Assembly (NCBI GenBank): GCA_015062435.1
Contig: SUUR01000002.1
Coordinates: forward strand, 187-64,186
DNA: 64,000 nt
Source of the DNA: Alphaproteobacteria bacterium
GTDB taxonomy: Bacteria; Pseudomonadota; Alphaproteobacteria; RF32; CAG-239
Reading direction: 5' to 3'
Part shown: positions 10,596 through 59,578 of the stretch, one piece after another
Numbering within the stretch: position 1 is the stretch's first letter
Layout of the letters: each line of letters opens with the position of its first letter
The notes under the pieces: generated by a model
The model's database searches: none
Seen by the model: only the letters and a program-made list of their open reading frames with translations
What the model was told of the DNA's origin: nothing
Position numbers and translations under genes: made by a program

Positions 10596-10868
10596 ATGTC
10601 ACCTCAAAAGATTTTATTTTACGCCGAATTATTAAAAGCTATTGCCAATCCGCATCGTTTAAAAATTTTATATATTTTAAAAGAAAAAGAAAATAATGTC
10701 GGAGAACTGGAACAAAAGATAAATTTAAGTCAATCAGCATTATCCCAACATTTAGCTGTTTTAAGAAACAAAGATATCGTAAAAACCAGACGTTCGGCAC
10801 AAACAATTTATTACACTTTAAAAGATAAGCGTATTTCTCAAATTTTAGAATTACTGAATAAATTATAA
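10596..10868 (+). CDS. ArsR/SmtB-family transcriptional regulator
   Basis: 90-aa winged HTH (NPHRLKILYIL...VGELEQKINLSQSALSQHLAVLRNKDIV). SD taaggag upstream. Confidence 0.85.
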   Translation: MSPQKILFYAELLKAIANPHRLKILYILKEKENNVGELEQKINLSQSALSQHLAVLRNKDIVKTRRSAQTIYYTLKDKRISQILELLNKL

Positions 10869-11345
10869 TCAGTTAGCCAATAATCTGGCTTTTTGAATTT
10901 TCCAATCTCTGTCTTTTATAGCTTCTCGCTTATCATAAAGCTTTTTACCACGACCAAGTCCGACTTCCAGTTTGGCCAATCCGTTTTTATCAAAAAACAA
11001 ACGCATAGCCACCAATGTTGCACCTTTTCTTGACAATGCGTTTATAATATCAACAATTTCTTTGTGTTTTAACAATAGCTTACGCTCACGTTTTTCTGCA
11101 TGAGATGAATATCCTTTATTTATATATTCCCCAATAAACATATTTGCGATATATAATTCACCATTTTTTTCTATTCCATAGGCATCATTTATATTTGCAT
11201 GTCCCAACCGCAAAGACTTGACTTCAGTACCTGTAAGTACCAATCCGGCCACAAACTTTTCATCTATCAAATAATCAAAATTTGCACGTCTGTTATGAGC
11301 AACTTGTCCGGTAGAAATATATTCAGCTTTATTTTTCTTGACCAT
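10869..11345 (-). CDS. smpB: SsrA-binding protein
   Basis: NRRANFDY...GLVLTGTEVKSLR and C-terminal basic tail; 158 aa. Confidence 0.92.
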   Translation of the reverse strand: MVKKNKAEYISTGQVAHNRRANFDYLIDEKFVAGLVLTGTEVKSLRLGHANINDAYGIEKNGELYIANMFIGEYINKGYSSHAEKRERKLLLKHKEIVDIINALSRKGATLVAMRLFFDKNGLAKLEVGLGRGKKLYDKREAIKDRDWKIQKARLLAN

Positions 11346-18377: not shown

Positions 18378-18428
18378 GGTTTAAGTTTCTCCTTTTAGTT
18401 AACATTAAATCAGGCAGATATTCCGCCC

Positions 18429-18447
18429 GACGAAAAATTTATTCGTC
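18429..18447. promoter_or_regulatory. Inverted repeat GACGAA-N7-TTCGTC upstream of ppdK (possible operator)
   Basis: gacgaaaaatttattcgtc lies about 50-70 nt upstream of the ppdK start codon. Function unknown. Confidence 0.25.
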
Positions 18448-18530
18448 AATACGTTATACTATTGATTCCGATTCTACAAGCAAAAAGTACAGTACTAACA
18501 CCCTCCCCCTTCTTCGTCATTTTTTATTAT

Positions 18531-18650
18531 CATACTCCGGCTCCCCTTCTCTGTCATACTCCGGCTCTCCTTCTCTGTCATACTCCGGCTCTCCTTCTTT
18601 GTCATACTCCGCCTCTCCTTCTCTGTCATACTTCGCCTCCCCTTCTCTGT
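18531..18650. repeat. Tandem array, 5 x 24 bp (catactccggctcyccttctytgt)
   Basis: Units at 18531, 18555, 18579, 18603 and 18627. Each starts with the 5' arm of the hairpin that terminates the array. Confidence 0.9.
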
Positions 18651-18720
18651 CATACTCCGGCTTGACCGGAGTATCTTCCCTTTAGTTTCCTGAGATTATC
18701 CGAACAAGTCGGATAATGAT
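18649..18720 (+). repeat. Double-hairpin dispersed element, copy A (about 72 bp)
   Basis: gtcatactccgg-cttga-ccggagtatc, 19-nt linker, attatccga-acaag-tcggataat. Homologous copies at 23253-23326 and 23746-23819 (reverse orientation) and 36779-36850. Confidence 0.85.
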
Positions 18721-18754
18721 AGATAATGATTTTGTCACCTCAAGCCTCCCTTTT

Positions 18755-18824
18755 TGTCATTCCGAGCCTCTCTTTTGTCATTCCGAGCCTCTCTTTTGTC
18801 ATTCCGAGCTTGTCGAGGAATCCC
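18755..18824. repeat. Tandem 21-bp units (tgtcattccgagcctctcttt x2) ending in tgtcattccgagcttgtcgaggaatc
   Basis: Direct reading of 18755-18775, 18776-18796 and 18797-18824. Confidence 0.8.
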
Positions 18825-19137
18825 AATAGATGTTTCGACTTCGCTCAACATGACAATTAGCGATATTTTCACCCCCACCTTAATCCTCTCCCATCTAAGG
18901 GAAGAAAATATAAAGCACATTCCTCTTAATTTTAAGAAGAAGTAAAAATCCCCCTCCTCACTTCCGAGTCGGACAACTTGCACCACAGAGCCAATTAGAC
19001 AAAATCGATTCGCATAAAGATTCACAAAACAAAGACATAGATTCACCCGACTCCTTTCATTTGTTTTATTTCGGCTATTTTCGCAACTGATTTTCCCTAC
19101 AAAATCACTAAAAAACAAACCATAAACCCATTTTTTG

Positions 19138-19165
19138 TTGCCAAAAATCACAAACGTGCTATAAT
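19138..19165 (+). promoter_or_regulatory. Near-consensus sigma70 promoter in the non-coding zone
   Basis: TTGCCA (19138-19143), 16 nt, TGcTATAAT (-10 at 19160-19165). Confidence 0.45.
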
Positions 19166-19234
19166 CAAAAATGCCATATTATCTTTTGTATGAAATTATC
19201 ACTATTATTAGAAAGAATGCTTTTTCATTGTTAG

Positions 19235-19258
19235 ATGTTCTAGCGTGAACATTTTTTT
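19235..19258 (+). terminator. Weak hairpin plus T7 tract
   Basis: atgttc (19235-19240), loop tagcgt, gaacat (19247-19252), followed by ttttttt to 19258. Confidence 0.35.
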
Positions 19259-19567
19259 GAAGATAGACTGATTAATTTTATTTTGATATGAGGCCCTTAT
19301 CATAACGTTGATAAGGTAAAGGTAAAAAAAACTAGTAAAAATATAAATTCCCCAAAGATGATTAGAAATAATCACATTTATTCACTGTTTTACAATTAAC
19401 ATTTTAGCAATTTCTCAAGTCATGGAGATAGGAACAGACCAGGTCTGGTGCCGATGATTGCGATGTTTTTTGTGTTCGGTGTCTAAATGATTTTTATGAT
19501 TCTGCGGGGGCTAAAGAGGGAATGGAATGTGATACTAGCACAAACCTATTACCTCAAAAAAATTGAC

Positions 19568-22198: not shown

Positions 22199-22321
22199 TT
22201 ATCTCTTAAAATTAAAATAAAGTTAATCACCCTCCCAAACCTCAAACATAGAGGTGCGGGAGGATTAAATAACCACAGAGACTGCTGTGTGGGGTCTAAC
22301 GACTAACGGGCAGTTTTAAAA

Positions 22322-23014
22322 ATGAAAAAACTTTTTACATTAATATTGTGCGTAGCTTTCGCTATCTCAGCTAGCGCACAAACCCGCCAATATATTGACG
22401 GTAGAGGGCACGTTTTCAATGGAAACGATTGTTTCCTAGTAACCCTCTACGGAGGCATCCACGCATACGGAAATATTTCCGACAATGCGCAATGCATTGG
22501 TGGAGCCGAGTTGGTGTACAACCACTACGGCTTCCGCGCATCAATTGGCGGAGCCTACGGGGCACAAAATACAAGCCATGGGCAACTAGGCTTGTATTGG
22601 AACTTCACTGGAAATGCTAACATCAAACACCGAGCTTACATCGGTGTCACTGGTGGTTTTATCCAGTATGGAGGAATAATCGACCAGGACTTGTTGCTTA
22701 ACGGCGCAAGTACCCACGTTGATCTCAGTGAAGTGCACAACATCAAGTTGACACTCCCTGAGAACTCCATTGCCCCAACTGTAGGAGCAAGAGTTGGTAT
22801 CGATTGGCGATTGGGAAGATCTATATATCTTACCACCGCAGTTGAAGGTAGCCGTAACTTTATTAATAAGAAGGTTACTTTCAATTCCGTTGAGGCTCAA
22901 TTGCCTTTAGAAGACGGAAACATCGATATCAAGCTGAAAACTACGGACGACCCGGTTCCGGTAAATCACTGGGGATTGAAAGCAATGATTGGTATCTCCA
23001 TAAGATTGAAATAA
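22322..23014 (+). CDS. Outer-membrane beta-barrel protein (foreign-looking)
   Basis: Signal peptide MKKLFTLILCVAFAISASA/Q, alternating Gly/aromatic beta-strand pattern, 230 aa, no SD upstream. Confidence 0.65.
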   Translation: MKKLFTLILCVAFAISASAQTRQYIDGRGHVFNGNDCFLVTLYGGIHAYGNISDNAQCIGGAELVYNHYGFRASIGGAYGAQNTSHGQLGLYWNFTGNANIKHRAYIGVTGGFIQYGGIIDQDLLLNGASTHVDLSEVHNIKLTLPENSIAPTVGARVGIDWRLGRSIYLTTAVEGSRNFINKKVTFNSVEAQLPLEDGNIDIKLKTTDDPVPVNHWGLKAMIGISIRLK

Positions 23015-23030
23015 CCTTTCATTGCCAGAG

Positions 23031-23072
23031 CAACCGCTGTTTCTATTTTTAGAACAGCGGTTGTTTCTTATT
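23031..23072 (+). terminator. Rho-independent terminator after the OMP gene
   Basis: caaccgctgtt (23031-23041) pairs with aacagcggttg (23052-23062), followed by tttcttattt. Confidence 0.7.
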
Positions 23073-23091
23073 TATTCATCCCCTTTTTTCT

Positions 23092-23326
23092 TGTCATTAC
23101 CCGATACCACTAACTGCAATTACCCGATACCACTAACTGTCATTATCCGGCTCAACTAACTGCAATTACCCGATACCACTAACCGTCATTATCCGGCTCG
23201 ACTAACTGTCATTACCCTACTTCACTAACTGCAATTACCCGACACCATTAACTGTCATTATCCGGCTCGACCGGATAATCTCAAGAAACTTAGAATAGAT
23301 ACTCCGGTCAAGCCGGAGTATGACAC
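23092..23326. repeat. 7 x 23-bp tandem units plus double-hairpin element, copy B
   Basis: Units start at 23092, 23115, 23138, 23161, 23184, 23207 and 23230 (tgtcattayccg..../tgcaattacccga....ctaac). Full hairpins follow: attatccggctcgaccggataat and atactccggtcaagccggagtat. Confidence 0.9.
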
Positions 23327-35755: not shown

Positions 35756-36754
35756 TTAATTCTCCATACAATTAGTATGACTATTAAAAATATAATCAAC
35801 TAAACAACTTTTGGTAAGATTACCATTTTGATCTGTTTGGGTACAAACATGATATCCATCTTCACATTCCAAAACATAATATCTAGTATAACCACCACAC
35901 GTTACTTCTTCACAAATAGCACGCGAAGGACAATATACTTCAGCTCCTTCTTCCCATACACATTCCACACACTCATTACCGATAAGCTCCGAATGAATAT
36001 CACAAACTAACTTATATCGTGTTGGTAATCCGCAACCTGGCACACAATCATATACAGTTCCATGATCTCCTTCAATAGGTTTTTCTTCAAATGGATAATT
36101 TGAACAGTTATCAGGAAAACACTCACAATATCCTGAGCAATATCCGTTACGATATACCCCATCGCAATAAGATTCATCTTCACATTCGTTTGGAAAATAA
36201 TCACGCTCACAAAATTCTGAACACATATTTGAATCAGCAGAACAAGTATATCCTTCACAATATTGCCACTCTCCGCCACATTCATAATATCCGGCACAGG
36301 GATTATTATTTACACAAGTATTTCCACTCTGCGTATATCCGGAATTACAGCTATCAAGTTTATATTTAGTGACATTACCGCAAGTATAATTAGAACACGT
36401 TCCGTTAGCATCACAACTGCTTAAAGGATAATTTGTAAAATTACAGGCGTTGCAAGTTAAACCGTCGGAACTGAGTTCATAACTGTTTTGACAACCATCT
36501 AATTTGTATTGAGTTAATTCTAAGCAAACGCCACCATCAGGACATGTTTCTAAAGGATATTCACTAAATCCGGATTCCGGACAATAGAACAGAGTAGTAT
36601 CAAACGGACAGGCTATGGCTTTTTTCCCCTCACAATCGTTTGCGGATTTGATATATCCCATATCTGCACAAGACGGACGAACCATACAACTGTCTTGAGC
36701 CAAAGATGATGAAGATAAAAGTAGTATTGATACGCTTATAACATATTTGTTCAT
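35756..36754 (-). CDS. Secreted Cys-rich repeat protein (third member of the CA(E/D)MGY family)
   Basis: ATG 36754 with SD aggag. Signal peptide MNKYVISVSILLLSSSSLA/Q, SCADMGYIKSANDCEGKKAIACPFD, then repeated C..C...CG...YKLD.C..GY units with a very high Cys count. Confidence 0.75.
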   Translation of the reverse strand: MNKYVISVSILLLSSSSLAQDSCMVRPSCADMGYIKSANDCEGKKAIACPFDTTLFYCPESGFSEYPLETCPDGGVCLELTQYKLDGCQNSYELSSDGLTCNACNFTNYPLSSCDANGTCSNYTCGNVTKYKLDSCNSGYTQSGNTCVNNNPCAGYYECGGEWQYCEGYTCSADSNMCSEFCERDYFPNECEDESYCDGVYRNGYCSGYCECFPDNCSNYPFEEKPIEGDHGTVYDCVPGCGLPTRYKLVCDIHSELIGNECVECVWEEGAEVYCPSRAICEEVTCGGYTRYYVLECEDGYHVCTQTDQNGNLTKSCLVDYIFNSHTNCMEN

Positions 36755-36778
36755 CTCATGGCTCCTTTGTTTTTCTCT

Positions 36779-36873
36779 GTCATATTCCGACTTGATCGGA
36801 ATATCTCTCTTAAATTTCGTGAGATTGTCCGAACAAGTCGGACAATGACAGTTAGTGATGTCAGACAATGACA
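36779..36873 (+). repeat. Double-hairpin element copy D plus one 23-bp unit
   Basis: gtcatattccga-cttga-tcggaatatc, linker, attgtccga-acaag-tcggacaat, then gacagttagtgatgtcagacaatgaca. Sits 25 nt upstream of the Cys-rich gene start. Confidence 0.85.
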
Positions 36874-37034
36874 TTTACAGAGATGCTGTTTAAGATGTTT
36901 AACAAGTATAGAATTTGGATAAAATATAAGGATATATGCTTGTAAGGTCACAAAGCTTAAACAGCATCTGTAACTTCAAGTATATAAAATGTTTTATAGT
37001 ATGTCAATATATAGTTAAAAGTAGTGGACGAATT

Positions 37035-44437: not shown

Positions 44438-44659
44438 TTAGTTTCCGGTAAGCATTACCAAAGCAAGCACCAAAGCATACAATGCCACAGCTTCAACGGC
44501 AGCAAAACCGGCCCAACCATAGAGATCCACTTCTTTTTTTACTTGAGGATTACGACCAACGGTAGCTATAATGGTTGTCCACACCTGAGATACACCCCAA
44601 GCAGCAGCCATCATAGACAAAGCACACATTCCTGCACCAATATAAGCCAACGGTTCCAT
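44438..44659 (-). CDS. atpE: F0F1 ATP synthase subunit c
   Basis: 73-aa two-helix hairpin with the proton-binding Glu in FAAVEAVALY. Confidence 0.92.
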   Translation of the reverse strand: MEPLAYIGAGMCALSMMAAAWGVSQVWTTIIATVGRNPQVKKEVDLYGWAGFAAVEAVALYALVLALVMLTGN

Positions 44660-47100: not shown

Positions 47101-47130
47101 TTGACCTTTATGATTTTTTATAATTATAAT
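47101..47130 (+). promoter_or_regulatory. Sigma70-type promoter for fliO-fliP
   Basis: TTGACC (47101-47106), 18 nt, TATAAT (47125-47130). Confidence 0.45.
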
Positions 47131-47154
47131 TATCACACGTTAGGAGAACTAAAT

Positions 47155-47448
47155 ATGGAATGGTACCAAATATTGCAAGCCGTATTATCGCTTGTTTTTG
47201 TAGTCGGATTACTTTTACTTTGTCTTTGGCTTTTTAAGTTTTGTGAACAAAAAAGCTTAAAACTTCAATTTTCTCGATTACAAAAAAACAATCGCCATAT
47301 CCATATCATAGAAAAATACATGCTTGATACAAAAAACAAAATAGTATTGCTATGCTGTGATGATATAGATTACTTATTACTTTTATCACCGACACATACG
47401 CAAGTTTTAAGCCAAAAACCACATACGGAAAACAACAATCATGAATAA
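47155..47448 (+). CDS. fliO: Flagellar biosynthesis protein FliO
   Basis: 97 aa with a single TM helix (ILQAVLSLVFVVGLLLLCLWLF). SD aggag. Overlaps the fliP start. Confidence 0.65.
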   Translation: MEWYQILQAVLSLVFVVGLLLLCLWLFKFCEQKSLKLQFSRLQKNNRHIHIIEKYMLDTKNKIVLLCCDDIDYLLLLSPTHTQVLSQKPHTENNNHE

Positions 47449-48178
47449 AAAATCAGTATTTATACTATTAACAGTATTTTTTAGCGTTTTTGCTTTACCG
47501 GTAATGGCGCAAAGCTTAAATATCAATTTAGCAGATGCTCCGGACGGAACAGCGACCGGACGCATTTTCAGCGTATTATTGATGATTACGGTATTATCAC
47601 TGGCTCCATCTATTTTAATAATGATGACATCTTTTACCCGTATTGCAGTAGTATTTGCAATTACTCGCAGTGCCTTAGCCACCAACACTACTCCGCCTAA
47701 TATGGTTCTTGTTTCTTTAGCCTTATTTCTAACCTTATTTATCATGAGTCCGACTCTTGAAAAATCTTGGGAACAAGGAATTAAACCAATGATGGATGAA
47801 AAAATAGAAGTTATGGAAGGTTTAGAAAAAGCATCAACCCCTCTAAAAGAGTTTATGGTAAATAATACCAGAGAAAAAGACTTGCTTCTTTTTAGCAATC
47901 TCAGTAAAGAAAAACCGGCAGAAACTGTTGCTCAAACACCTCTTAAAATTGCGATCCCCGCCTTCATGATTAGTGAACTGCGTCGAGCTTTTGAAATAGG
48001 TTTCCTAATATTCGTTCCATTTTTAATAATCGATATGGTAATTGCTTCAGTCCTAATGTCTATGGGTATGATGATGCTTCCGCCGAGTGTTTTGGCATTA
48101 CCATTCAAAATAATTTTTTTCGTATTGGTTGACGGTTGGTATCTCTTAGCCGGAAGTCTTGTTAACAGTTTCAACTAG
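47441..48178 (+). CDS. fliP: Flagellar type III export apparatus protein FliP
   Basis: Signal peptide plus highly conserved PAFMISELRRAFEIGFLIFVPFLIIDMVIASVLMSMGMMMLPP. Confidence 0.95.
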   Translation: MNKKSVFILLTVFFSVFALPVMAQSLNINLADAPDGTATGRIFSVLLMITVLSLAPSILIMMTSFTRIAVVFAITRSALATNTTPPNMVLVSLALFLTLFIMSPTLEKSWEQGIKPMMDEKIEVMEGLEKASTPLKEFMVNNTREKDLLLFSNLSKEKPAETVAQTPLKIAIPAFMISELRRAFEIGFLIFVPFLIIDMVIASVLMSMGMMMLPPSVLALPFKIIFFVLVDGWYLLAGSLVNSFN

Positions 48179-48513: not shown

Positions 48514-51498
48514 TTACCAAACTTCATCATAACCTAGCGTAGGATCATTCAGACGAAGATTGTAATCATCATTATTCTTATCAAATCCCCATCTGAAATT
48601 TATTAATTGGTCATAACCTTTGTATGATTGACCACCATCAACAATCTGATGATTCCATTCCCACTTTGGAGCCGTAGACATCGCACGTCTTTCAAAATAA
48701 CAATAAACATTTGCAATAGCCGTCATTTCTTCATTATACACCGGAAACAGATTCCAAACCACTTTACCTTGTAAATCACCAAAAGATGCACCTATTTTAG
48801 TTAAATATTCTTCATAATCAGAAGCATAATATAAGAATCCCATAATTGCATGCCAACCGATGAATGCTGATTGACGTTGTCCGCCATCAGCTCCTGACCC
48901 TGAGGCTGTTGATGGAGTTCCTTTATTTCCATAAACACCACTGATGGTTGTATTTAGCCATGTATTTGTTTGGAATGTTAATGGCCAACCGCTTTTTACT
49001 ACGTGACTGTGACTTCCGTTTCCGTTAGAACTGTTAAGTTCAAAAGCCGCATTCAAAGGATTCGTTCTTGGCACAAAATAATCCCTGAATTTTTTACCGA
49101 TATCTCCTGCAGAAGGTTCCACACCCGGAATAAAGAATGCTTCAGACATTTTCCATCTGATAGGACTGATGGTAATTACCTTCGAATATCCGGGAGGACA
49201 TTGTGGTGTAGGCACAAATCCCAACCACGGAGACGCTATACAGTTTGCATCATTATTAGCACATTCACCAGGTCCATCTACCGTAAATCCTCCTCCGACT
49301 AATGCTGTAACCGGATATTCCTCCCATTTCTTTTTATTATCTTCTTCTTTATATGTATTATCCAATACATAAATACCTTTATTAATAAAATCCGGAAGAA
49401 TATCACTTAACCTTGCTCCACCTCTTGTAGTCAGCTTAATATCATGCATTACTGAAGTATACGCCGGATTCACCTGATATGCATCATAAGCTTTGGTAGC
49501 TCCGGTATCATAATCTCCTTTTCCGACATAATCTGGAAATTCAACATTTGAAATAAATCTGTCTGCACGAATATACCCCGGAGTATCAACCCTTCCTTCA
49601 GAAGTATCACCGGTGTTAAGAGTTCCCCTTGCCACATCAATAATTCCTTCTCTTGATATTCTCACCCCTGTATCACGAACAGAATTATCAGACGGAAACG
49701 CCGGAGCTAAATCGTACACAATATCATCATCATTCATAATAAAATTATCATTAAATTGGAAAGTGCTACTATTAACATATGTTGTATCTGCAGTTATGGT
49801 AACATCTCCATTTTCCAATTCCATCTGTGGAGTATTCACACCAGTTCCCTGACCTCCGATAATTGCAGCATAATTACCGCTCATTACGGAACCGCTTGCA
49901 TCAATTGCTAATTTATTATCACCGGCAGCCGTATTTACTTCAAATGCCGTACCTATGTCCATACTCATTGCCCCCGTTGAAGCGGAAACCGTATTTCCGC
50001 TTATTGCAACTTCACCGGCACTATCAATTGCCACCCCCGAAGAATCCGTTTTTAATTTATTGGAAACAGCCCCGTTTATTTGCTGATAACTCAAACCACT
50101 ATCATCAATTAATAATTTATTTGTTTCACTTGAACCACCGATTATTTCAACTGCTCTATTATTACCGGTCTTAGATACTTTTAAGATATCACTAACCGAA
50201 AAACTCGGTAAATTAACTTTAACATCATCAGCCGTTGCTACAAAGTTATAAGTACCATCTTCTTGTTTTCCACCACCAAGTTCAATATTCCCATATAGCT
50301 TATCAGCTATCAAATCTTGATCTATTTTAACGTTTCCGGTAAAATGTGCATTTGCATTATTCTTAACCAATAAATTCCCATCAACCGCTAACGAATATTC
50401 TTCATTTTCATCATCTGTCTCACCACTTGTACCGGAAACTAAAATTCCTTCACCTGCTATTAACTTACCGGTAGTATCAACCGTCACTTTTTCATTAATT
50501 TTAGTTGCACCTGTTATTGTTGTCGCACCTGTTATTGTTGTCGCTCCGGTTATTGTTGTTGCTCCGGTAATACTTGTCGGCACATTGATGTCAACCTTAG
50601 ATGAATCTACTGTCATCTTTTCTGCAATATTTGCACTTCCGGCTTTTAATAATCCTGTAATTGTGCCTGTACCAGCCGTCAAAGCACTGGTAATATTTGC
50701 ATTTTCTGCTGATATATCCTTCGTAACATCTAAACCGCCTTCTATCGTAACCTTATCAATTCCACTGGCAGCCACAATCTTATCAACGTCTTCAATAGAG
50801 TTTTCTGCCATATACAATGTTGTTTGCATTGTATTATACTCAATACCTTCTGAGTTATCTCTGAACAACACATGATCTTTATTGGCACCACCGCCACCTG
50901 ATGATGTAACCGCATGTACCGATGCCGTCACCAAACTTCCGGTATTTACAGTATCACCAAAACCAAAATCAGATAAATTAGCCTTCCAACCGCCTTGAAC
51001 ACCCATGATATTAAAATCTGCACGTTCTTTATCAACCACACCACCGTTGGCACCAACCATGGATGCTATTTTTGCAGCTCTGATCATTGGTAATTCAGCA
51101 TCAACCGGAGCCAACACCATTCCGGTAATGGCGGAGTGTTCATTATCTTCACCTTCATTAATTAATTCATTTCTTAGAGCAAACTCATATTTTCCGAATA
51201 TTTTAGATTTATCGATATTAAAATTATATGGCAAATACGGAACAATATCATCGCTGTCAATAGAAGCCTCACCTACCGGTCCGGAAGCAATTTCATCATA
51301 GTTATCATATATATAATCATCTAATGCTTTTGAGAGTGTACGCATTTGAGTTGCAGCATTGATATCTTGCAATTCGGTTGTTCTTTCCGCTGCTTTTTTA
51401 TACAATACCGGAGTAACCATAGTAATCAACCCGAGCATTGCCAATGCTTCTACCATCATACTGCCTTTTTGCAAACATTTTTCCGTTTTGGTTTTCAT
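48514..51498 (-). CDS. Giant (994 aa) protein with prepilin/TadE-TadG-like N-terminus, beta-helix-like repeats and a Cys/Trp-rich C-terminal domain
   Basis: N-terminus MKTKTEKCLQKG/SMMVEALAMLGLITMVTPVLY: a short basic leader, Gly, Glu at +5, then about 20 hydrophobic residues. Gly/Thr/Asn-rich repeats in the middle, including (TITGAT)x4. Confidence 0.6.
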   Translation of the reverse strand: MKTKTEKCLQKGSMMVEALAMLGLITMVTPVLYKKAAERTTELQDINAATQMRTLSKALDDYIYDNYDEIASGPVGEASIDSDDIVPYLPYNFNIDKSKIFGKYEFALRNELINEGEDNEHSAITGMVLAPVDAELPMIRAAKIASMVGANGGVVDKERADFNIMGVQGGWKANLSDFGFGDTVNTGSLVTASVHAVTSSGGGGANKDHVLFRDNSEGIEYNTMQTTLYMAENSIEDVDKIVAASGIDKVTIEGGLDVTKDISAENANITSALTAGTGTITGLLKAGSANIAEKMTVDSSKVDINVPTSITGATTITGATTITGATTITGATKINEKVTVDTTGKLIAGEGILVSGTSGETDDENEEYSLAVDGNLLVKNNANAHFTGNVKIDQDLIADKLYGNIELGGGKQEDGTYNFVATADDVKVNLPSFSVSDILKVSKTGNNRAVEIIGGSSETNKLLIDDSGLSYQQINGAVSNKLKTDSSGVAIDSAGEVAISGNTVSASTGAMSMDIGTAFEVNTAAGDNKLAIDASGSVMSGNYAAIIGGQGTGVNTPQMELENGDVTITADTTYVNSSTFQFNDNFIMNDDDIVYDLAPAFPSDNSVRDTGVRISREGIIDVARGTLNTGDTSEGRVDTPGYIRADRFISNVEFPDYVGKGDYDTGATKAYDAYQVNPAYTSVMHDIKLTTRGGARLSDILPDFINKGIYVLDNTYKEEDNKKKWEEYPVTALVGGGFTVDGPGECANNDANCIASPWLGFVPTPQCPPGYSKVITISPIRWKMSEAFFIPGVEPSAGDIGKKFRDYFVPRTNPLNAAFELNSSNGNGSHSHVVKSGWPLTFQTNTWLNTTISGVYGNKGTPSTASGSGADGGQRQSAFIGWHAIMGFLYYASDYEEYLTKIGASFGDLQGKVVWNLFPVYNEEMTAIANVYCYFERRAMSTAPKWEWNHQIVDGGQSYKGYDQLINFRWGFDKNNDDYNLRLNDPTLGYDEVW
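50503..50577 (-). repeat. In-frame repeat of about 3.5 x 21 nt (GATTITG units)
   Basis: Residues 308-332: TSITGATTITGATTITGATTITGAT. Confidence 0.75.
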
Positions 51499-51516
51499 CA
51501 GTCCTCTCCTTAAACT

Positions 51517-52203
51517 TTAAATGTTGCTTACATAAATCATACAAATTTTATTACTGCTCAAATCACATTTAGATTTAAACGTAACATCATTAACAATCGC
51601 TTTAGGTACAAAATTAACTCTTACACCATCTCTATCCACCAACCTCACATTAGACCCTGAAGGATTGTCTTCCGTATTGGCTATACCCTCAGCATCTGCA
51701 AGAGCCATATAGCCGAATTTTTCTCCCACATTCACAATAGAACGCATAGCATTCATCAAATCCAAATTAGGTCTTTGCATTTCAGCGGATAAACTCATCC
51801 AACGTGGAGGTATCGGCCCATAAGTTATAAGCAATCTGCGATTTGTAATCAAATCACACGGATTGTTAGTGGGATTATGAGAATATGCTTCCGAAAAAGT
51901 CGGATCCATACAAAAAATCTGACTGACATAATCATTATTCATAATAAAACCGAATGGTAACTCTTTTTTTAAATCATCTTCACTAACCACACCAACTTGA
52001 TATTCAACTTTTTTCTTATCAGCACTATAAGGAAATTTTTTATATTTCACATAACTTTTAGCAGCTTCATGCTGAACAATAATTTTTCCCAACACTGCTT
52101 CGGCAACAGGTTCTACCGTAATCGAACGCATATCCGGTCGTATAGCAAGCGAATAAGACGCAAGCATTGCCAAAAACGTTGCCAATATAACCCAAATATA
52201 CAT
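51517..52203 (-). CDS. Membrane-anchored protein, unknown function (upstream partner of the giant pilin-like gene)
   Basis: Start at ATG 52203 (SD gagg 9 nt upstream): MYIWVILATFLAMLASYSLAI, then a soluble domain. Ends 18 nt before the 994-aa gene. Confidence 0.55.
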   Translation of the reverse strand: MYIWVILATFLAMLASYSLAIRPDMRSITVEPVAEAVLGKIIVQHEAAKSYVKYKKFPYSADKKKVEYQVGVVSEDDLKKELPFGFIMNNDYVSQIFCMDPTFSEAYSHNPTNNPCDLITNRRLLITYGPIPPRWMSLSAEMQRPNLDLMNAMRSIVNVGEKFGYMALADAEGIANTEDNPSGSNVRLVDRDGVRVNFVPKAIVNDVTFKSKCDLSSNKICMIYVSNI

Positions 52204-52375
52204 TTGATTAACCTCAAAATCATTTACATATATGTCAGTATAACATAAAAAAAGTTTCAAATATGTTAAACTTATATTAAATCTACTGGTAATAAGTGCA
52301 AAATTTACGTTTATTTATAAAATTAATGATATAAAATACAATCAAGTTGCCATAGCGATCTGTTTGGGGAAAAAT

Positions 52376-52912
52376 ATGATTGATCAAGAAGACGATTTAG
52401 ATGGCGGAGAAGAAACTTCTTCTCCCAAGCCCATAAACCGTAAAAAAATGCTCATACTGGTTTTACCGGTAGTTATTGTTATTGGTTTATCGGTAGGCTT
52501 ATATTTTGCATTAAACAAAGATTACAACAATACCCCCGGTACATATAACATTATTCAAAACGGAAAATCTGAAGACGGAACAGAAAACATAACAGTTTTC
52601 TACGATTTACCGGAGATAAACGCTCGCATAAAATCAGTAGGACCGGATAAAAAAACCGTATCATTGGCGCTAAATGTTGAACTTTCCAAAATAGAAGATG
52701 TTCAAACATTAGATATCCTATCACCCAGAATTAAAGATGCGGTATTATCTCACGTTATAGAACTTACCCCCGAAGAAATCGAAGGAGCCAACGGAATTTA
52801 TTGGCTTAAAGAAGAATTGCTGTATCGTCTTAATTTGGTGGTTGCACCGGTACGTATCAGTAGTCTTAATATCAAACAAATAGAAGTTATCAACGAAAAC
52901 AAAGAACCTTAA
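52376..52912 (+). CDS. fliL: Flagellar basal-body-associated protein FliL
   Basis: TM helix followed by the FliL domain (VFYDLPEINARIKS...LSPRIKDAVLSHV). Upstream of fliM. Confidence 0.8.
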   Translation: MIDQEDDLDGGEETSSPKPINRKKMLILVLPVVIVIGLSVGLYFALNKDYNNTPGTYNIIQNGKSEDGTENITVFYDLPEINARIKSVGPDKKTVSLALNVELSKIEDVQTLDILSPRIKDAVLSHVIELTPEEIEGANGIYWLKEELLYRLNLVVAPVRISSLNIKQIEVINENKEP

Positions 52913-52923
52913 GGATAAATAAA

Positions 52924-53961
52924 GTGGCTGAAGAAACTTCAACATCTCCTGACAATACTCCTTCTGTTTCACCTGAAATTGAAGAAAATATTGCAGATTC
53001 AAAGATTTTAAATCAAGAAGAAATCGATATTCTTTTAGGATATGGTACGGATATCGATAACGATTCTCCGATTCAGACCAACGGCGTTAGAGCCATTCTC
53101 AATTCCGGAATGGTTTCATATGAACGTTTACCCATGCTGGAAATCGTTTTTGACCGTTTGATTCGCCTTATGGCTACTTCACTGCGTAACTTCACTCAAG
53201 ATAACGTTGAAGTATCTTTAGACAGCATTGAATCCATGCGTTTTGGCGAATACATTGAATCTCTAACACTTCCGACATTGCTAAATGTTTTCAAAGCCGA
53301 AGAATGGGACAATTATGGTTTAATGTCTGTCGATAGCTCACTTATTTACTCAATGGTAGATGTATTACTTGGCGGACGCAGAGGCACCGCAGCCATGCGT
53401 ATTGAAGGACGCCCATACACCACAATTGAATTAAATATCGTAAAGGAAATGATAAAGCTTATTTTAAGTGATTTATCAACAGCTTTTGACCCTATAACTT
53501 CTGTTACCTTTGCTTTTGACAGATTAGAAACTAATCCTCGTTTTGCAACCATATCTCGCCTATCTAATGCCGTAATTGTAGCTCATCTTAGAGTAGATAT
53601 GGAAGATAGAGGAGGTAAAATAGATTTAATGATTCCATATGCAACCCTTGAACCGGTCAGAGAACTTCTTTTGCAAATGTTTATGGGAGAACGTTTTGGT
53701 CGGGACGCTGTTTGGGAAAATCACCTTATGTCTCAGCTTTGGGATACCGATGTAGAAATTAAAGCGATTCTCAAAGAAAAAGAAATCAAGTTAGCAGAAA
53801 TATCTTCATGGGAAAAAGGCTCTTTTCTGCCTTTAGAGATCAGTCCCCAAGAAGATGTAACCATTGTTTGCGGAGATGTTCCGTTGTTTAAAGGAGCAAT
53901 GGGAAGAAAAGATAAAAATATTGTTATCAAAATTGACAGAAAGGCTGAAAAAGATGGCTAA
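52924..53961 (+). CDS. fliM: Flagellar motor switch protein FliM
   Basis: GTG start. LNQEEIDILLG CheY-P-binding-type N-terminus plus FliM middle and C-terminal domains. Confidence 0.88.
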   Translation: MAEETSTSPDNTPSVSPEIEENIADSKILNQEEIDILLGYGTDIDNDSPIQTNGVRAILNSGMVSYERLPMLEIVFDRLIRLMATSLRNFTQDNVEVSLDSIESMRFGEYIESLTLPTLLNVFKAEEWDNYGLMSVDSSLIYSMVDVLLGGRRGTAAMRIEGRPYTTIELNIVKEMIKLILSDLSTAFDPITSVTFAFDRLETNPRFATISRLSNAVIVAHLRVDMEDRGGKIDLMIPYATLEPVRELLLQMFMGERFGRDAVWENHLMSQLWDTDVEIKAILKEKEIKLAEISSWEKGSFLPLEISPQEDVTIVCGDVPLFKGAMGRKDKNIVIKIDRKAEKDG

Positions 53962-54388
53962 TTTAGAGTTGGTTATAAATCTCATAATCATAGCATTGTT
54001 GGTTCCTACAATTTTGTATGCTTACCGCTTGAATCATAGTTTAAAAATGTTACGCCAAAACCAAAATAGTTTGGCTCAGTTGGTAAATGCACTAAATGAA
54101 GCCACATTCAAAGCCGAAAACAGTATTCCCAAAATCAAATCGGTTACCGAACATTCATCTGAAGGACTAAAAGAGGTAGTAGACAGCGCCAAAGAACTTA
54201 AAGATGACTTATTGTTCATCAACGAAAGAGCAGATACTCTTGCTGACAGACTGGAAAACGTCATCAGCACGGGAAGAACAATAAAACCCCAAACGGAAAT
54301 TGTTTCTTCCACTTCGCCCCTCAAAGAAGATATTTCTCGTTCCGAAGCTGAGCTTGAATTATTAAAAGCTTTACGATCAATAAAATAA
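53954..54388 (+). CDS. Flagellar-cluster membrane protein (DUF6468-like)
   Basis: MANLELVINLIIIALLVPTILYAYRLN TM helix plus coiled coil. Overlaps the fliM stop. The family name is tentative. Confidence 0.45.
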   Translation: MANLELVINLIIIALLVPTILYAYRLNHSLKMLRQNQNSLAQLVNALNEATFKAENSIPKIKSVTEHSSEGLKEVVDSAKELKDDLLFINERADTLADRLENVISTGRTIKPQTEIVSSTSPLKEDISRSEAELELLKALRSIK

Positions 54389-54409
54389 ACAAAGACTAAG
54401 GTACTACAA

Positions 54410-55048
54410 ATGTCAAACAACAAAAACAAAATACGCCTTCTTCCCATATTTATCTTTATGGCTGTACTAACTTTGTCAATAAAAGTTAACAACATTTTTG
54501 ATATATACCAAAACAACTCTTCATCAAAAGTAAGTATCACAACATCTGAAGCTTTTGCTGAAGAAAAAATCGCCCAAGAAAGTGCCGAATTATCTAAATT
54601 TTTAACCGACGGGAAACCGGAAAACGCCAAAACAGCACCTAACAGTGCTTTTTCGCAATCAGAAATTTTAATTTTGCAAGAGCTTGCAGAACGCAGAGAA
54701 GCTTTAGATGTTAGAGCTCAAGCCATAGATAAACGTGCGATTCAACTCAAAGTAACCGAAGAAGAAATAAATAAAAAACTTCAACAACTTCAAGACTACG
54801 AAAACAGACTTCAAAAACTTGTAAACACTTATTCAGAACAAGAAAAAGCCAACATTGCATCTATGGTAAAACTCTATTCGGCCATGAAACCGCAAGACGC
54901 TGCTCGTATATTTAATTCATTGGATATGAACATTACCGTTGCTTTGCTTAAAGGAATGAAACCATCATCATCATCGGCAATACTTTCACAGATGGATTCT
55001 CAAAAAGCACAAGCCGTAACAGCGGAGCTTATCGGAAACAACCTTTAA
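54410..55048 (+). CDS. MotE/FlbB-like flagellar protein (MgtE_N-type domain)
   Basis: Signal-anchor, coiled coil, then MKPQDAARIFNSLDMNITVALLKGMKPSSSSAILSQMDSQKAQAVTAEL. Confidence 0.55.
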   Translation: MSNNKNKIRLLPIFIFMAVLTLSIKVNNIFDIYQNNSSSKVSITTSEAFAEEKIAQESAELSKFLTDGKPENAKTAPNSAFSQSEILILQELAERREALDVRAQAIDKRAIQLKVTEEEINKKLQQLQDYENRLQKLVNTYSEQEKANIASMVKLYSAMKPQDAARIFNSLDMNITVALLKGMKPSSSSAILSQMDSQKAQAVTAELIGNNL

Positions 55049-55051
55049 TCC

Positions 55052-57595
55052 TTGAGGATTTTTACATTGTTAAATAAAAGGCGAAATTCTAACATTTTAA
55101 TATCAGCAGCAATAACTTTTATTGTTTTTGCCGGTATTGCAAATGCACAAACGCCTCTTATCATGGATTCTGAATTACATGCTCCAACCTATGATAACAA
55201 AGATAAAATTAACAATACTCCTCTCTATGCCTTAGGAACAGCACCTGAGAAAAAAGTCGCAAGTCTTAGTTTTGCATGGAATAGTCCAACCAGTTTGGCA
55301 TCTTTTGAAAGAAACGGCAAAATTTGGCTTATTTTCGATGATTTGCAACAAGTTGACATTGAGAATCTGAAAACAACGGCATCTCCATTAATTAAGAATA
55401 TTTTTCAATTTCCGCATCCCTTAGCGACACTTATTCAAATTATCCCTGAAGATGGTGTTAAGGTTTCGATTCGTAAAGAGGGGTTACTTTGGATTGTTGA
55501 TTTATATAAGCAAGATATTCCTCCGCACGAATTTAAGGAAATGACTATTTTTACTCAATATGACAGTCTTAAACAACCATACCTGTTCATTCCCAATGAA
55601 TACTCAGGCAACGTAATTTCAATCATCGACCCTGAGATCGGCGATATCATAAGTACGGCTCCATCATCACAACCGTATTTAGGTACATCGCAAACATATA
55701 ATTATCCTGAATTTGATATCTTGCAAACTATACAAGGACTTGCTTTTGTAATTAATGCACCAGATATTTTACTCACCAGAAGCAATTCCGGTCTTACTCT
55801 GAGAGCTCAAGGCAGAGGATTAAATATTTCAAGTGATTTGGAATTATTAAAACGTCGTCAACTAAAAAAAGACAACTTCGGTAAAATCCAAAATTTTAAT
55901 TTACAAATACCAGATACAATTCAAAAAATGTCATTCATTGACGCAGTAGAGAAATTTAAAAAAGATATTATTGCAGCACCTCTCAGTGAAAAGAATCAAC
56001 TAAGAATTGAACTGGCCCGTTATTATATATCTCAAGGCTTGGGAACCAATGCTTTATTTATTCTTAATCAAATAAAAAAAGCCAAACTTCCCGAATCAAA
56101 AACAGATGACTTCCACTCATTAAGTGGAATAGCCAATTTTTTGGCCAGAAGATACCAAGATGCCGCTCAAGACTTTTCTCAAGGAAATTTACCAGAGTTT
56201 GATGAAGGAATTTTTTGGCGCACACTTTCTCAAAGCGCATATGAATACAATGAAACTAACAACGCAATTATTTTCGCCCACATTTCTTTAATCAGAGATT
56301 ATCCGCAGGAGATAAAAGATCAAGTTGCTTTGGTTGCTGCTCGCAATGCGATTCGCACAGGAGATGATTTATCATCGCAAAACTTTATAGATATTTTACG
56401 TTCGGTTCCGGACAGACTCCGCAATCTTACCCCTGAAATTAATTATCTTTTTGCACAAAAATTAGAAATTCAGGGATACCCCAGAAACGCAATTAAGGAA
56501 TACCGTAATATCATAAAATCACCATCAGCAAAATATTCGGCTCTTTCTCGCTACAACAATGCAATTTTGAGTCAAAAATTAAATATCATGCCAACCAAAG
56601 AAGCCATAGCAGAACTTGAAAGGCTACGTTTTGCATGGAGTGAAAAAGAATTTAAACTCAATTTATTAAATCAGTTATCTACACTATATCTAAAAGATTT
56701 TGATTATCACAATGCCTTACGCACATTAAATGAAGCCATTTCTTTCGCAGATAAGAGTGAAGACAAAGAACGTTTGACCAAACGCATGATTAAAGTTTTT
56801 GAAGAAATATTCCTAAGCAATCAAGCCGATGAAAAACTATCTCCGATTACGGCTCTTGCCCTCTATCAAGATTTTAATTGGCTATCTGACTTAAGTACCA
56901 AAAGACTATCAATAATTCAACATTTGGCAGATCGTTTGGTTGCGGTAGATTTATTACCCAGAGCACAAAATATTCTCTCATCATTATTACAAGAACCAAA
57001 TTTAACCGATGAAGAACGGGCTAGAATCGGCTCTCGTATTGCTGTCATTTATTTGTTTGAAAACAGCCCTACTCATGCCATAGAAGTATTAAATCGCACT
57101 TCTGCCCCTAACCTATCTGATGCCACCACCAATCCGCGCAGAGTAATCATGGCAAGAGCTTATACCTCACTTGGCCAAACGAATAAAGCACTTGAGCTTT
57201 TGGAAAATGATTATAGCAAAACAGCCCTTTTACATAAGTTTGAAATTTATTGGAGTGGACGCCAGTGGGATAAAGCTTCAGATACCATCAAATATCTTGT
57301 AGAAGAACCGCAAAAAGGCCAAAAACTCTCTCAAGAACAAATAAATTTCATATTAGATTGGGCAACCACTCTCAAACAAGCAGGAAAAGATACGGTTTTA
57401 GTACGCTTACGCAACAAATTTCTTCCTTACTTTTCTAATACCAAATATTATAGCATTTTTAATATCTTAACCAAACAACTGGAACAAGATAAAGTTGACA
57501 TAAAAGAAATAAATAATATAGTAAATGATGTACAAGCATTTACCAACTATGCCAAAATATATGGTGAAAGCTTGCAACATAGCATATCAGAATAA
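55052..57595 (+). CDS. Large periplasmic TPR-like protein in the flagellar operon
   Basis: Non-ATG (TTG) start is uncertain. Signal peptide ...FAGIANA/Q. Helical-repeat-rich; 847 aa. Confidence 0.55.
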   Translation: MRIFTLLNKRRNSNILISAAITFIVFAGIANAQTPLIMDSELHAPTYDNKDKINNTPLYALGTAPEKKVASLSFAWNSPTSLASFERNGKIWLIFDDLQQVDIENLKTTASPLIKNIFQFPHPLATLIQIIPEDGVKVSIRKEGLLWIVDLYKQDIPPHEFKEMTIFTQYDSLKQPYLFIPNEYSGNVISIIDPEIGDIISTAPSSQPYLGTSQTYNYPEFDILQTIQGLAFVINAPDILLTRSNSGLTLRAQGRGLNISSDLELLKRRQLKKDNFGKIQNFNLQIPDTIQKMSFIDAVEKFKKDIIAAPLSEKNQLRIELARYYISQGLGTNALFILNQIKKAKLPESKTDDFHSLSGIANFLARRYQDAAQDFSQGNLPEFDEGIFWRTLSQSAYEYNETNNAIIFAHISLIRDYPQEIKDQVALVAARNAIRTGDDLSSQNFIDILRSVPDRLRNLTPEINYLFAQKLEIQGYPRNAIKEYRNIIKSPSAKYSALSRYNNAILSQKLNIMPTKEAIAELERLRFAWSEKEFKLNLLNQLSTLYLKDFDYHNALRTLNEAISFADKSEDKERLTKRMIKVFEEIFLSNQADEKLSPITALALYQDFNWLSDLSTKRLSIIQHLADRLVAVDLLPRAQNILSSLLQEPNLTDEERARIGSRIAVIYLFENSPTHAIEVLNRTSAPNLSDATTNPRRVIMARAYTSLGQTNKALELLENDYSKTALLHKFEIYWSGRQWDKASDTIKYLVEEPQKGQKLSQEQINFILDWATTLKQAGKDTVLVRLRNKFLPYFSNTKYYSIFNILTKQLEQDKVDIKEINNIVNDVQAFTNYAKIYGESLQHSISE

Positions 57596-57598: not shown

Positions 57599-59578
57599 AT
57601 GTCATCAATATTTAAATTAGTTAGCAATTTTGAACCTGCCGGAGATCAACCGCAAGCAATAAAAGAACTTTGCTCTGGTATTATGAATGGTGAAAAAAAT
57701 CAAGTTCTGCTAGGTGTTACCGGAAGCGGAAAAACTTATACTATGGCCAAGGTAATTGAACAGTGTTCCAGACCGGCTTTGATTATGGCTCCCAATAAAA
57801 TTTTGGCCGCTCAACTTTATAGCGAAATGAAAGAATTTTTTCCTCACAATCATGTCGAATACTTTGTTTCGTTTTATGATTACTATCAACCGGAAGCTTA
57901 TGTTCCCAAAACAGATACTTATATAGAAAAAGATTCTGCCCAAAACGAACAAATAGACCGTATGCGTAATGCTGCTACTCGTAATATTTTAGAAAATAGA
58001 GATGTAATAATTATTGCATCAGTATCATGTATATACGGATTAGGAGACGTTGAATCATATTCATCTATGACAATACCGCTACAAATTGGTCAAAACATTA
58101 ACACAAAAGAATTATGTCGCCAATTAAGTGATCTGCAATATGAGCGAAATCAACAAAACTTTGTCCGTTCCACATTTAGAGTACAAGGTGATATTATTGA
58201 TATTTTTCCGGCACATTACGAAGACAAAGCATGGAGAATTTCTTTTTTTGGAGATGAAATAGATAACATTTATGAGTTTGATAGCCTTACCGGAAAAAGA
58301 ATTTCCAACTTAACAAATATTACCATTTATCCTGCCAATCACTATGTGACACCACGTCCCACAATTTCACAAGCAATTATCGGCATTAAAGAAGAACTTC
58401 AAGAACGAATTGAAGAATTTAAATCTCAAAACAAATTTATAGAAGCTCAACGTATAGAACAACGTACCAGATTTGATTTAGAAATGCTTGCAACAACCGG
58501 ACATTGCAAAGGAATAGAAAATTATTCTCGCTATCTGACCGGTCGCAAAGCAGGCTCTCCTCCTCCAACATTATTTGAATATTTACCGCCTGACGCACTT
58601 ATATTTATAGATGAAAGCCATGTTTCCGTACCACAAATCGGTGGCATGTTTAAAGGGGACTACAACAGGAAATCCACACTCGCACAATATGGTTTCAGAT
58701 TACCGTCTTGTGTTGATAATCGTCCGCTGAAATTTGACGAATGGGATCAAATGAGAGGACAAACAATTTTTGTATCAGCAACTCCAAGTGATTGGGAACT
58801 GGAACAAACTCAAGGTTGTTTTGTAGAACAAGTTATCCGTCCGACCGGATTAACAGATCCAGTTTGCATAATCCGACCGGTAGAAAACCAAATTGATGAT
58901 CTTATTAATGAATGTCGTAAAATTTCTGCCAAAGGTGAACGAGCCCTAGTCACCACATTAACAAAAAAAATGGCAGAAGACTTAACCGAATATCTTAATG
59001 ATAACGGTATAAAAGTAAGATATTTGCATTCAGATATTGATACTCTTGAACGCATTGAAATTATTAGAGATTTACGTTTGGGTGTTTTTGATATTCTGGT
59101 AGGAATAAACTTGCTTAGAGAAGGATTAGACATACCAGAATGTTCCTTAGTTGCAATTTTAGATGCCGATAAAGAGGGTTTTTTGCGTTCAGAACGTTCT
59201 CTTATACAAACTATCGGCAGAGCTGCTCGCAATGCTGAAGGAAAAGTAATTTTATATGCAGACAACATTACCAAATCTCTTGAAGGAGCTCTTAACGAAA
59301 CCAATCGTCGCCGCCATAAACAAATGCAATATAATATTGCCAACGGTATAACTCCTCAAACCATAAAAAAGAAAATCTCAGCATCTCTCAGTGAGATGAC
59401 CAACAAAGAATCTTCAAATTCAACAGTTTCTTTACCTGTTAACCTTCAAGAAATTGAAAAAAACATAAAAGAATACCAAAAACTTATGCAAAATGCAGCC
59501 GCAGACTTAGAATTTGAAACAGCAATTACCTATCGCAACAAAATTAAAGAACTTGAAGAACTTTATCTTAAGAGTTAA
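57599..59578 (+). CDS. uvrB: Excinuclease ABC subunit B
   Basis: Walker A GVTGSGKT, helicase motifs, C-terminal UVR domain (LEFETAITYRNKIKELE). Confidence 0.96.
   Translation: MSSIFKLVSNFEPAGDQPQAIKELCSGIMNGEKNQVLLGVTGSGKTYTMAKVIEQCSRPALIMAPNKILAAQLYSEMKEFFPHNHVEYFVSFYDYYQPEAYVPKTDTYIEKDSAQNEQIDRMRNAATRNILENRDVIIIASVSCIYGLGDVESYSSMTIPLQIGQNINTKELCRQLSDLQYERNQQNFVRSTFRVQGDIIDIFPAHYEDKAWRISFFGDEIDNIYEFDSLTGKRISNLTNITIYPANHYVTPRPTISQAIIGIKEELQERIEEFKSQNKFIEAQRIEQRTRFDLEMLATTGHCKGIENYSRYLTGRKAGSPPPTLFEYLPPDALIFIDESHVSVPQIGGMFKGDYNRKSTLAQYGFRLPSCVDNRPLKFDEWDQMRGQTIFVSATPSDWELEQTQGCFVEQVIRPTGLTDPVCIIRPVENQIDDLINECRKISAKGERALVTTLTKKMAEDLTEYLNDNGIKVRYLHSDIDTLERIEIIRDLRLGVFDILVGINLLREGLDIPECSLVAILDADKEGFLRSERSLIQTIGRAARNAEGKVILYADNITKSLEGALNETNRRRHKQMQYNIANGITPQTIKKKISASLSEMTNKESSNSTVSLPVNLQEIEKNIKEYQKLMQNAAADLEFETAITYRNKIKELEELYLKS

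Follow-up and report, generated by a model that had tools for sequence, protein, structure and literature searches.

The closest described systems to the proteins reported here are the minor-pilin complexes of type IV filaments. PilV, of the IncI thin, type IVb pili, is a minor-pilin adhesin with a distal binding part (PMC9045228), CofB sits at the pilus tip (PMC9045228) and TcpB docks TcpF (PMC12075869). The minor pilins TadE/F/G and KilL/M/N assemble into dimers or trimers through alpha1N bundles, the C-terminal domain of their large subunit (TadG/KilN-type) is modular and has no PDB homologues, and Tad tip gene clusters can be unlinked from their machinery (PMC12075869). Parts of type IV pili also have a precedent at the flagellum, where the motor of Helicobacter pylori bears a cage derived from PilM, PilN and PilO (PMC10823254). 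Here we describe a minus-strand gene pair in a 64,000-nucleotide stretch of alphaproteobacterial contig SUUR01000002.1 (the whole stretch is referred to as the window), comprising a large gene for a 994-residue protein (48514–51498, (-)) and a small partner gene for a 228-residue protein (51517–52203, (-)). Minor-pilin-type proteins that bear a modular distal domain are already known as a kind, to which the large product belongs, and the pair is tentatively taken as an operon for the tip or priming complex of a type IV filament, a reading that we hold with slightly less than even confidence.

The two open reading frames (ORFs) are separated by 18 nucleotides (nt) and lie exactly where the preliminary description of this DNA, made from the sequence alone, had placed them. 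The start of the small gene was set at the ATG at 52203, which opens a conserved MY(I/V)W in the orthologue alignment, and an upstream TTG at 52260 was dismissed on the same alignment. Both are real genes, given more than 200 full-length homologues (>207 for the large protein, counted in 90%-identity clusters). Gene order was scored in non-redundant lineages (<75% identity; handles beginning with L below). The small partner is present in 55 of 55, its gene ending 2–27 nt ahead of the large gene, with a single exception in which the two overlap.

The large protein begins with MKTKTEKCLQKG, followed immediately by SMMVEALAMLGLITMVTPVLY. The first of these is a basic leader peptide (residues 1–12; 51463–51498, (-)) that ends in an invariant Gly(-1); the second is a hydrophobic run of 21 residues that includes an invariant Glu17 (+5) and continues into YKKAAERTTELQDIN. 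Run and conserved amphipathic stretch together make up the alpha1 helix core, SMMVEALAMLGLITMVTPVLYKKAAERTTELQDIN (residues 13–47; 51358–51462, (-)). Gly(-1) and Glu(+5) do not vary in the 76-sequence alignment of the large protein (A1), and the signal recurs in 237 of 248 relatives, the remainder being fragments or mis-called starts; the leader, Gly included, most often measures 12–13 residues. Mean pairwise identity reaches 0.94 over residues 13–47, as against 0.24–0.56 elsewhere in the protein, and identity in the remaining N-domain, which runs to about residue 195, is 48%. The class III (prepilin-type) arrangement first noticed in this single protein is thus near-invariant in its family. 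So is its misfit to the strict type IV pilin pattern: position +1 is occupied by S, G or T throughout the relatives and never by F, Y, L, I, V or M, PROSITE pattern PS00409 does not match, and hidden Markov model (HMM) searches with Pfam N_methyl and TIGR02532 gave no match even at E<=10. Signals of the TadE/F type likewise have a small +1 residue.

A Gly-x4-Glu followed by a hydrophobic run is not in itself a pilin hallmark. ATP synthase subunit c in the window (44438–44659, (-)) and its orthologues meet the same loose class III pattern, so the motif alone is not diagnostic.

Homology of the N-terminal domain (residues 1–195; 50914–51498, (-)) was assessed in the family rather than in one sequence. 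Neither the large nor the small protein matches any Pfam or NCBIfam model at normal thresholds. When 53 diverse N-domains were tested singly against pilin and other family models, pilin families recurred: Shufflon_N in 12/53 (sub-threshold; best E 7e-6), GspG in 10/53 (weak; best E 0.0046) and ComGG in 9/53 (best E 2e-4). PMP1_2, an unrelated short family, was hit weakly in 8/53 (best E 0.0077). The same scans of the small partner brought up no recurring family and serve as a negative control. One relative, P0075, a full-length protein 39% identical to the window protein across 99% of its length, scores 37.6 bits against Shufflon_N, where the Pfam cut-off is 27.5; the match spans residues 48–270 and covers the globular part, past the hydrophobic helix. 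The window protein itself gives no match to Shufflon_N (PF04917) and is tied to it by transitivity through A1, and its sole pilin-model match is to GspG (residues 14–66 against model positions 4–56, E 0.026; 14.6 bits for TIGR01710, under the curated cut-off of 88.85). Because pilin families recur, P0075 passes the family threshold and the small-partner control is negative, the N-terminal module is accepted as a type IV minor-pilin-type (PilV/Shufflon_N) domain by sequence homology. As in PilV, a prepilin-type signal accompanies a homologous N-terminal constant region. AlphaFold predicts a compatible shape, a long helix (residues 2–65) followed by a beta-sheet, at a predicted local distance difference test (pLDDT) score of 77–88, in a model whose overall mean pLDDT is 65.

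The pseudopilin-type reading given to the protein at the outset therefore stands as far as minor-pilin homology of the N-domain is concerned; its proposed likeness to TadE/TadG does not. Neither TadE (PF07811) nor vWA gave a match at E<=10, and no tad genes were present at any locus, so membership in that group was rejected. What the pair does share with TadE/F/G and KilL/M/N is that genes for a small and a very large subunit stand side by side, and we liken it to their alpha1N-bundled complexes and to their modular C-terminal domain without PDB homologue. Tad tips use three genes, whereas there are two here, one of whose products lacks a leader and processing site.

The small partner begins M-Y-(I/V)-W without any leader, so that its 21-residue hydrophobic helix, MYIWVILATFLAMLASYSLAI, starts at residue 1. 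It has no Glu at position 5 in the orthologue alignment and contains four conserved Cys, two of them paired near the C-terminus. No family library contains a match to it. Profile–profile alignment with hhalign related it to the N-domain of the large protein (88% probability, E 3e-6), with corresponding positions matched from where the long helix ends up to and including a common YLP(Y/F)GF strand, and its structural model (pLDDT 87.8; predicted template modelling score 0.80) shows a helix and then a five-stranded sheet. We therefore read the small partner as a leaderless, Glu-less paralogue of the large protein's pilin-like domain. The view of it as a mere membrane-anchored partner gives way to this paralogy. 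GspK-type cap pseudopilins also lack Glu5, and a subunit without this residue is expected to be the top-most of a pilin stack. GspK, however, has a cleavable leader and a known fold, whereas the small partner is leaderless and has no detectable similarity to it.

Beyond the N-domain, the large protein divides into a stalk and a head. The stalk (residues 196–640; 49579–50913, (-)) is rich in Gly, Thr, Ser, Asn and Asp, contains neither Trp nor Cys, and is the least conserved part of the protein (pairwise identity 0.24–0.34), with an approximately two-fold variation in length across the family. It includes the repeat noted earlier, found by Tandem Repeats Finder as an array of 18 nt x 4.1 (50507–50579, (-)) encoding (S/T)ITGAT x4. 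A beta-helix had been proposed for this middle region and was discarded, as the AlphaFold model offers no support for it: confidence is low over residues 198–309, and a beta-meander is predicted at about 400–660. When the large model was compared with viral structures, the matches were fibre-like only, to phage tail fibres, with template modelling (TM) scores <0.15, unusable as homology. The C-terminal head (residues 641–994; 48517–49578, (-)) is conserved (pairwise identity 0.56), contains the NPAYTSVMHDIKLTTRGGARLSDILPDF block and is predicted by AlphaFold to be beta-rich. Its 354 residues hold 11 Trp and four Cys, the latter invariant (Cys746, 753, 767 and 933), in agreement with the Trp/Cys-rich C-terminus described before; no Pfam, NCBIfam or PDB match was obtained for it. 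A stalk that is variable in length and poorly conserved fits an exposed fibre rather than a periplasmic part of fixed geometry.

In overall plan the protein resembles PilV, a minor pilin with a distal binding part (PMC9045228), and also TcpB and CofB, in which a pilin domain is followed by beta-rich domains and which are tip-located and prime assembly. Its size sets it apart from both: PilV has about 430–460 residues, whereas the large protein has 994 with a 445-residue stalk, and TcpB and CofB are half its size.

These features suggest a model for the pair as a minor-pilin-type tip or priming complex. Both proteins would insert in the inner membrane via their N-terminal helices, and these may associate in the manner of pilus tip complexes: being leaderless, the small subunit has a free N-terminus, which the buried Glu of the large one would neutralise. 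In the stack, the small subunit would then form the cap and the large one would come next. The large protein would be cleaved by a prepilin peptidase behind Gly12, and the complex lifted out of the membrane by type IV filament machinery whose genes lie elsewhere, so that a pilus or short pseudopilus could display stalk and Cys/Trp-rich head at its end. The head may bind a conserved ligand or partner.

Several results weigh against such a role. At the level of similarity, no curated pilin model is matched by the window protein above threshold; profile searches of the PDB with A1, A4 and A2 returned nothing significant, and no solved pilin was matched. Foldseek comparison of the large model with the PDB peaked at E 0.12 (an OspA-like sheet, beta-propellers and a weak but recurring TcpB, the latter at E 0.3–1.3 and TM <0.2, not significant), and the small-partner model found no neighbour there either (best E 1.3). 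We know of no described leaderless pilin-like subunit. Conservation lies in the head here, whereas PilV has a variable, shufflon-swapped C-terminus; there is no recombinase and there are no repeated inversion sites at this locus, short imperfect inverted repeats only. Type IVb minor pilins have their genes inside their pilus operons, as do TcpB and CofB, and pilV lies inside a complete one, whereas the pair stands alone. The search for machinery around it, by Pfam annotation of neighbours and signature motifs, covered about 95 loci at a radius of 10 kb and revealed no assembly ATPase, platform protein, secretin, prepilin peptidase or Flp/major pilin. Nor was a pilus ATPase, secretin or prepilin peptidase present in the 74 kb that were read of the 92-kb source contig, that is, the window and 10 kb past its right-hand end, the contig beginning about 190 bp to the left of the window. 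Lastly, in 45 of the 53 non-redundant lineages with sufficient flanking DNA, a flagellar operon is the immediate neighbour of the pair.

The absence of a pilus ATPase, secretin and prepilin peptidase from the window had been reported initially, and translations together with Pfam searches of unassigned ORFs agree with it. A scan for T2SS-E Walker A, A24 GxGD and classical pilin or Flp signals in 1.8 Mb of lineage DNA around the pair was also negative; this DNA is one neighbourhood sampled repeatedly, not whole genomes. Two candidates were rejected. Short Flp or major-pilin ORFs that might have been missed near the pair came down to ATP synthase subunit c, a false positive, and a T2SSE ATPase 9.5 kb upstream of the pair (L092/L071) is VirB11, of a type IV secretion system; the VirB11-type gene of L094 is preceded by VirB9/CagX and VirB10/TrbI genes. 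The surrounding type IV secretion/conjugation cluster (CagX/VirB9, TrbI/VirB10, VirB11-type ATPase) occupies 1–5010 in L092, where it is followed by a 418-residue lipoprotein with a secretin-like C-terminal motif, and 1–10357 in L094, where the secretion genes are broken into short ORFs, suggesting frameshifts or assembly errors.

The lack of machinery near the pair and the sub-threshold scores of the window protein against every curated pilin model would also suit an envelope complex of an ordinary kind, anchored in the inner membrane and serving, for instance, as a tether in the periplasm or in envelope maintenance, in which the pilin-like helix acts as a signal-anchor only and nothing is assembled into a filament or tied to the flagellum. 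The occurrence of G-x4-E in unrelated membrane helices such as that of subunit c points the same way, as do the housekeeping or envelope neighbours of the deep branches (yhdP/PBP, a Bat/VWA operon, lolA/rnf), and the conserved Cys pairs and a nearby DsbA-like gene suit a periplasmic location. A plain anchor, however, leaves unexplained why leader length, Gly(-1) and the buried Glu(+5) are conserved over hundreds of lineages, why the partner's helix starts exactly at residue 1, and why the stalk is fibre-like and variable in length. We consider this explanation unlikely.

The flagellar neighbourhood called for closer analysis. In the window, fliO (47101–47448, (+)) and fliP (47441–48178, (+); E 7e-78) converge on the large gene, whose 3' side is 335 nt from fliP, and fliL (52364–52912, (+)) and fliM (52924–53961, (+); E 2e-64) diverge from the pair; HMMs thus verify the flanks originally assigned. 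The pair is divergent from fliL-fliM-DUF6468-MgtE_N-TPR-uvrB in 40/53 lineages and co-directional, just upstream of fliL, in 4/53 (an in-place inversion), giving fliL adjacency in 44/53 overall. The remaining abutting case (L081/L093, 1/53) has the pair co-directional with fliF-fliG-fliH-fliN-flbD-flhA and immediately ahead of it; flbT lies another 7 kb upstream. In L005 (1/53), fliK-flgD-flgE lie about 7 kb away, and 7/53 lineages have no flagellar gene within 10 kb. The fliO-fliP side is retained in 11 of the 39 lineages that were scored divergent by script. What had looked like an unusual placement is therefore conserved synteny, and the arrangement beside flagellar genes is ancestral in the clade. 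The deepest branches examined (L055/L091, L078, L085, L086, L087 and L095) keep the pair without flagellar neighbours. Of the distant relatives in addition to the 53, L087 and L095 have it amid housekeeping or envelope genes, and the contig of L088 is too short to judge.

This recurrence invites a further explanation, in which a pilin-derived module was repurposed as a flagellum-associated envelope structure and no pilus is made. The two proteins would be helix-anchored in the inner membrane and oligomerise around or beside the motor through pilin-style helix packing, stalk and head crossing the periplasm, with the neighbouring FlbB-like and tetratricopeptide repeat (TPR) proteins as partners, much as the PilM/N/O-derived cage does in H. 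pylori. If true, type IV pilus components would have been recruited to the flagellum a second, independent time, and pilins themselves for the first time. Besides the three abutting configurations (40, 4 and 1) and the more distant one of L005, it draws on that precedent (PMC10823254), on the lack of pilus machinery at the loci examined, and on the near-invariance of the alpha1 helix (0.94), which suits a fixed protein–protein interface. Two neighbours of the pair fit as well: the product of the MgtE_N-domain gene (54410–55048, (+)) resembles the spirochaete collar protein FlbB (NF047368, E 1.6e-9, below the cut-off), and the 847-residue TPR protein encoded next to it (55052–57595, (+)) has a signal peptide. 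The likeness to H. pylori is one of location, pilus proteins at the motor there and a pair adjoining motor genes here; the cage proteins belong to the alignment complex, are not pilins and have no sequence relation to the pair.

Other observations speak against this flagellar alternative. Conserved order by itself is weak evidence, since uvrB (57599–59578, (+), directly after the TPR gene), which is not flagellar, is equally syntenic and lies directly behind the flagellar cluster in nearly every related locus (L003–L083). An in-place inversion preserves adjacency trivially, so only the move to fliF counts as an independent re-association, and a rough estimate gives about a 5% chance of one among some 11 relocations. 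Nine of the 53 lineages lack fliL adjacency, seven of these without a flagellar gene within 10 kb, and the deepest branches keep the pair away from flagellar genes, several of them together with its promoter elements. The two-fold variation of stalk length is hard to fit with a fixed periplasmic geometry, and it is not apparent why a permanent anchor would need an invariant Gly(-1). Neither protein of the pair matches the flagellar accessory families FlgT, FlgP, PflA/B, MotE/FlbB or the collar proteins. We regard a motor-associated structure, with its details of geometry and partners, as unlikely, yet as the main rival of the tip complex. The flagellar adjacency is put down to common descent, perhaps combined with joint expression of organelles of the cell pole, and gives no proof of a flagellar role.

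The region between the pair and fliL bears on both the tip-complex reading and the flagellar one. A putative promoter block of the pair (52237–52280, (-)) reads TTAA-N7-TTAAC-N6-GAAAC, then TATGTTATACT, which is -10-like, and a GAGG ribosome-binding site lies nearer the small-gene ATG. Across lineages, an extended -10 element is found about 35–45 nt before this ATG with direct repeats resembling TTAA-N7-NAAA upstream; these elements are kept ahead of the small gene in many lineages, several without flagellar neighbours. The block includes a perfect TTAA-N7-TTAA (52266–52280), the full-site consensus of CtrA, and its TTAA-N7-GAAA element ends about 24–25 nt before the inferred start site, a spacing that matches the 23–24 nt geometry of CtrA-activated flagellar promoters (PMC6180460) and is a point for the flagellar alternative. 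A sigma-70-like reading, TTAACA-16-TATGTT, also fits. The strict CtrA box occurs in 0/52 orthologous intergenic regions, and the degenerate motif shows no excess in the window, with 23 copies against an expectation of 19.5; the box was thus rejected as a conserved element and retained as a local promoter element, and its absence elsewhere tells against the flagellar alternative. Since the promoter block is kept without flagellar neighbours, it was counted in favour of a pilus-tip role.

Separately, a TGTT(A/G/T)CA-N5-TG(T/A)(A/T)A(A/T)TTT element is seen 85–110 nt before the small-gene start in many lineages, some without flagellar neighbours (including L012, L016, L022, L034, L042, L051, L078, L087 and L088). 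It is probably a binding site for a putative regulator.

The pair separates fliO-fliP from fliL-fliM and is read from the other strand. It had been described as inserted, and a recently acquired adhesin island in the flagellar locus of this genome would account for that arrangement. The guanine-plus-cytosine (GC) content of the pair (0.34–0.40) and its skew show no departure from the surroundings, however, and no flanking repeats, integrase or tRNA were found around it. Members of an order-level clade share the arrangement, even where protein identity is as low as about 30%. Recent insertion was therefore ruled out on composition and conserved synteny and is highly improbable.

If the pair does form a filament tip, a two-gene unit whose partner needs no peptidase would add a novel means of capping or priming filaments. 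New are the family itself, a 1,000-residue subunit, a leaderless partner, a conserved head on a variable stalk (the reverse of PilV), the lack of linked machinery and the recurrent flagellar neighbourhood. The conserved head is a candidate surface or host-binding determinant of a widespread uncultured gut lineage, and the recurrent adjacency to fliL or fliF offers a concrete case of possible crosstalk between pilus-type and flagellar systems. Should the genomes lack a pilus machine, the family would exemplify a prepilin signal kept for another purpose.

The family is large and without functional annotation. An exhaustive profile search with the large protein gave 829 cluster representatives at E<=1e-10, of which 341 reach E<=1e-30; listed members have 299–1303 residues, most near full length, and none of the >207 homologues carries a functional name. 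A scan of one genome per species placed the large protein in 282 species, and the best 80 of the 282 are without exception Alphaproteobacteria assembled from gut metagenomes, the hosts being humans, ruminants, pigs, chickens and mice. We take these metagenome-assembled genomes (MAGs) to belong to GTDB order RF32. The small partner is identical to NCBI 'hypothetical protein E7012_00860' from a gut alphaproteobacterial MAG. A literature search found no paper on this family or on the motility genes of the lineage. Some family members are imperfectly represented: in L038 (9947–12998; Proteobacteria bacterium CAG:495) the large gene is split into overlapping ORFs (9947–11029 and 10791–12998) by a frameshift or assembly error, and L037 and L046, separate contigs of MAG CATGXW01, each encode one family member's C-terminal half, at 55% and 50% identity to the window protein, which points to two paralogues or a mixed bin.

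The divergent flagellar cluster next to the pair, assigned with Pfam and NCBIfam, extends from 52364 to 57595 (+) and comprises fliL, fliM, DUF6468, the MgtE_N/FlbB-like gene and the 847-residue TPR gene. The mechanically called DUF6468 ORF (53864–54388, (+)) overlaps the end of fliM by about 100 nt, and its true start is likely an ATG near 53954 (MANLELV...). The MgtE_N and TPR genes resemble a periplasmic motor-scaffold module that is kept with fliL-fliM across the clade. In L093, three large unannotated genes (388, 1082 and 763 residues; 2169–9139) occupy the interval from flbT to the pair, upstream of fliF, with neither NCBIfam matches nor relatives in the other loci.

Elsewhere in the window, two genes (235–1194, (+), and 35756–36874, (-)) encode secreted Cys-rich proteins with a common N-terminal motif, SC..P.CA(E/D)MGY(T/I)KS..DC.GK...CPFD, the former additionally with DUF285/LRR_5 repeats; they possibly represent a lineage-specific family of surface proteins. 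A region of somewhat raised GC (about 18400–23100; 0.42–0.43 in places) contains an ORF ending in REARNDK repeats (18735–19151), a 903-residue lipoprotein-like ORF without Pfam match (19487–22198) and a 230-residue ORF that resembles an outer-membrane barrel (22322–23014).

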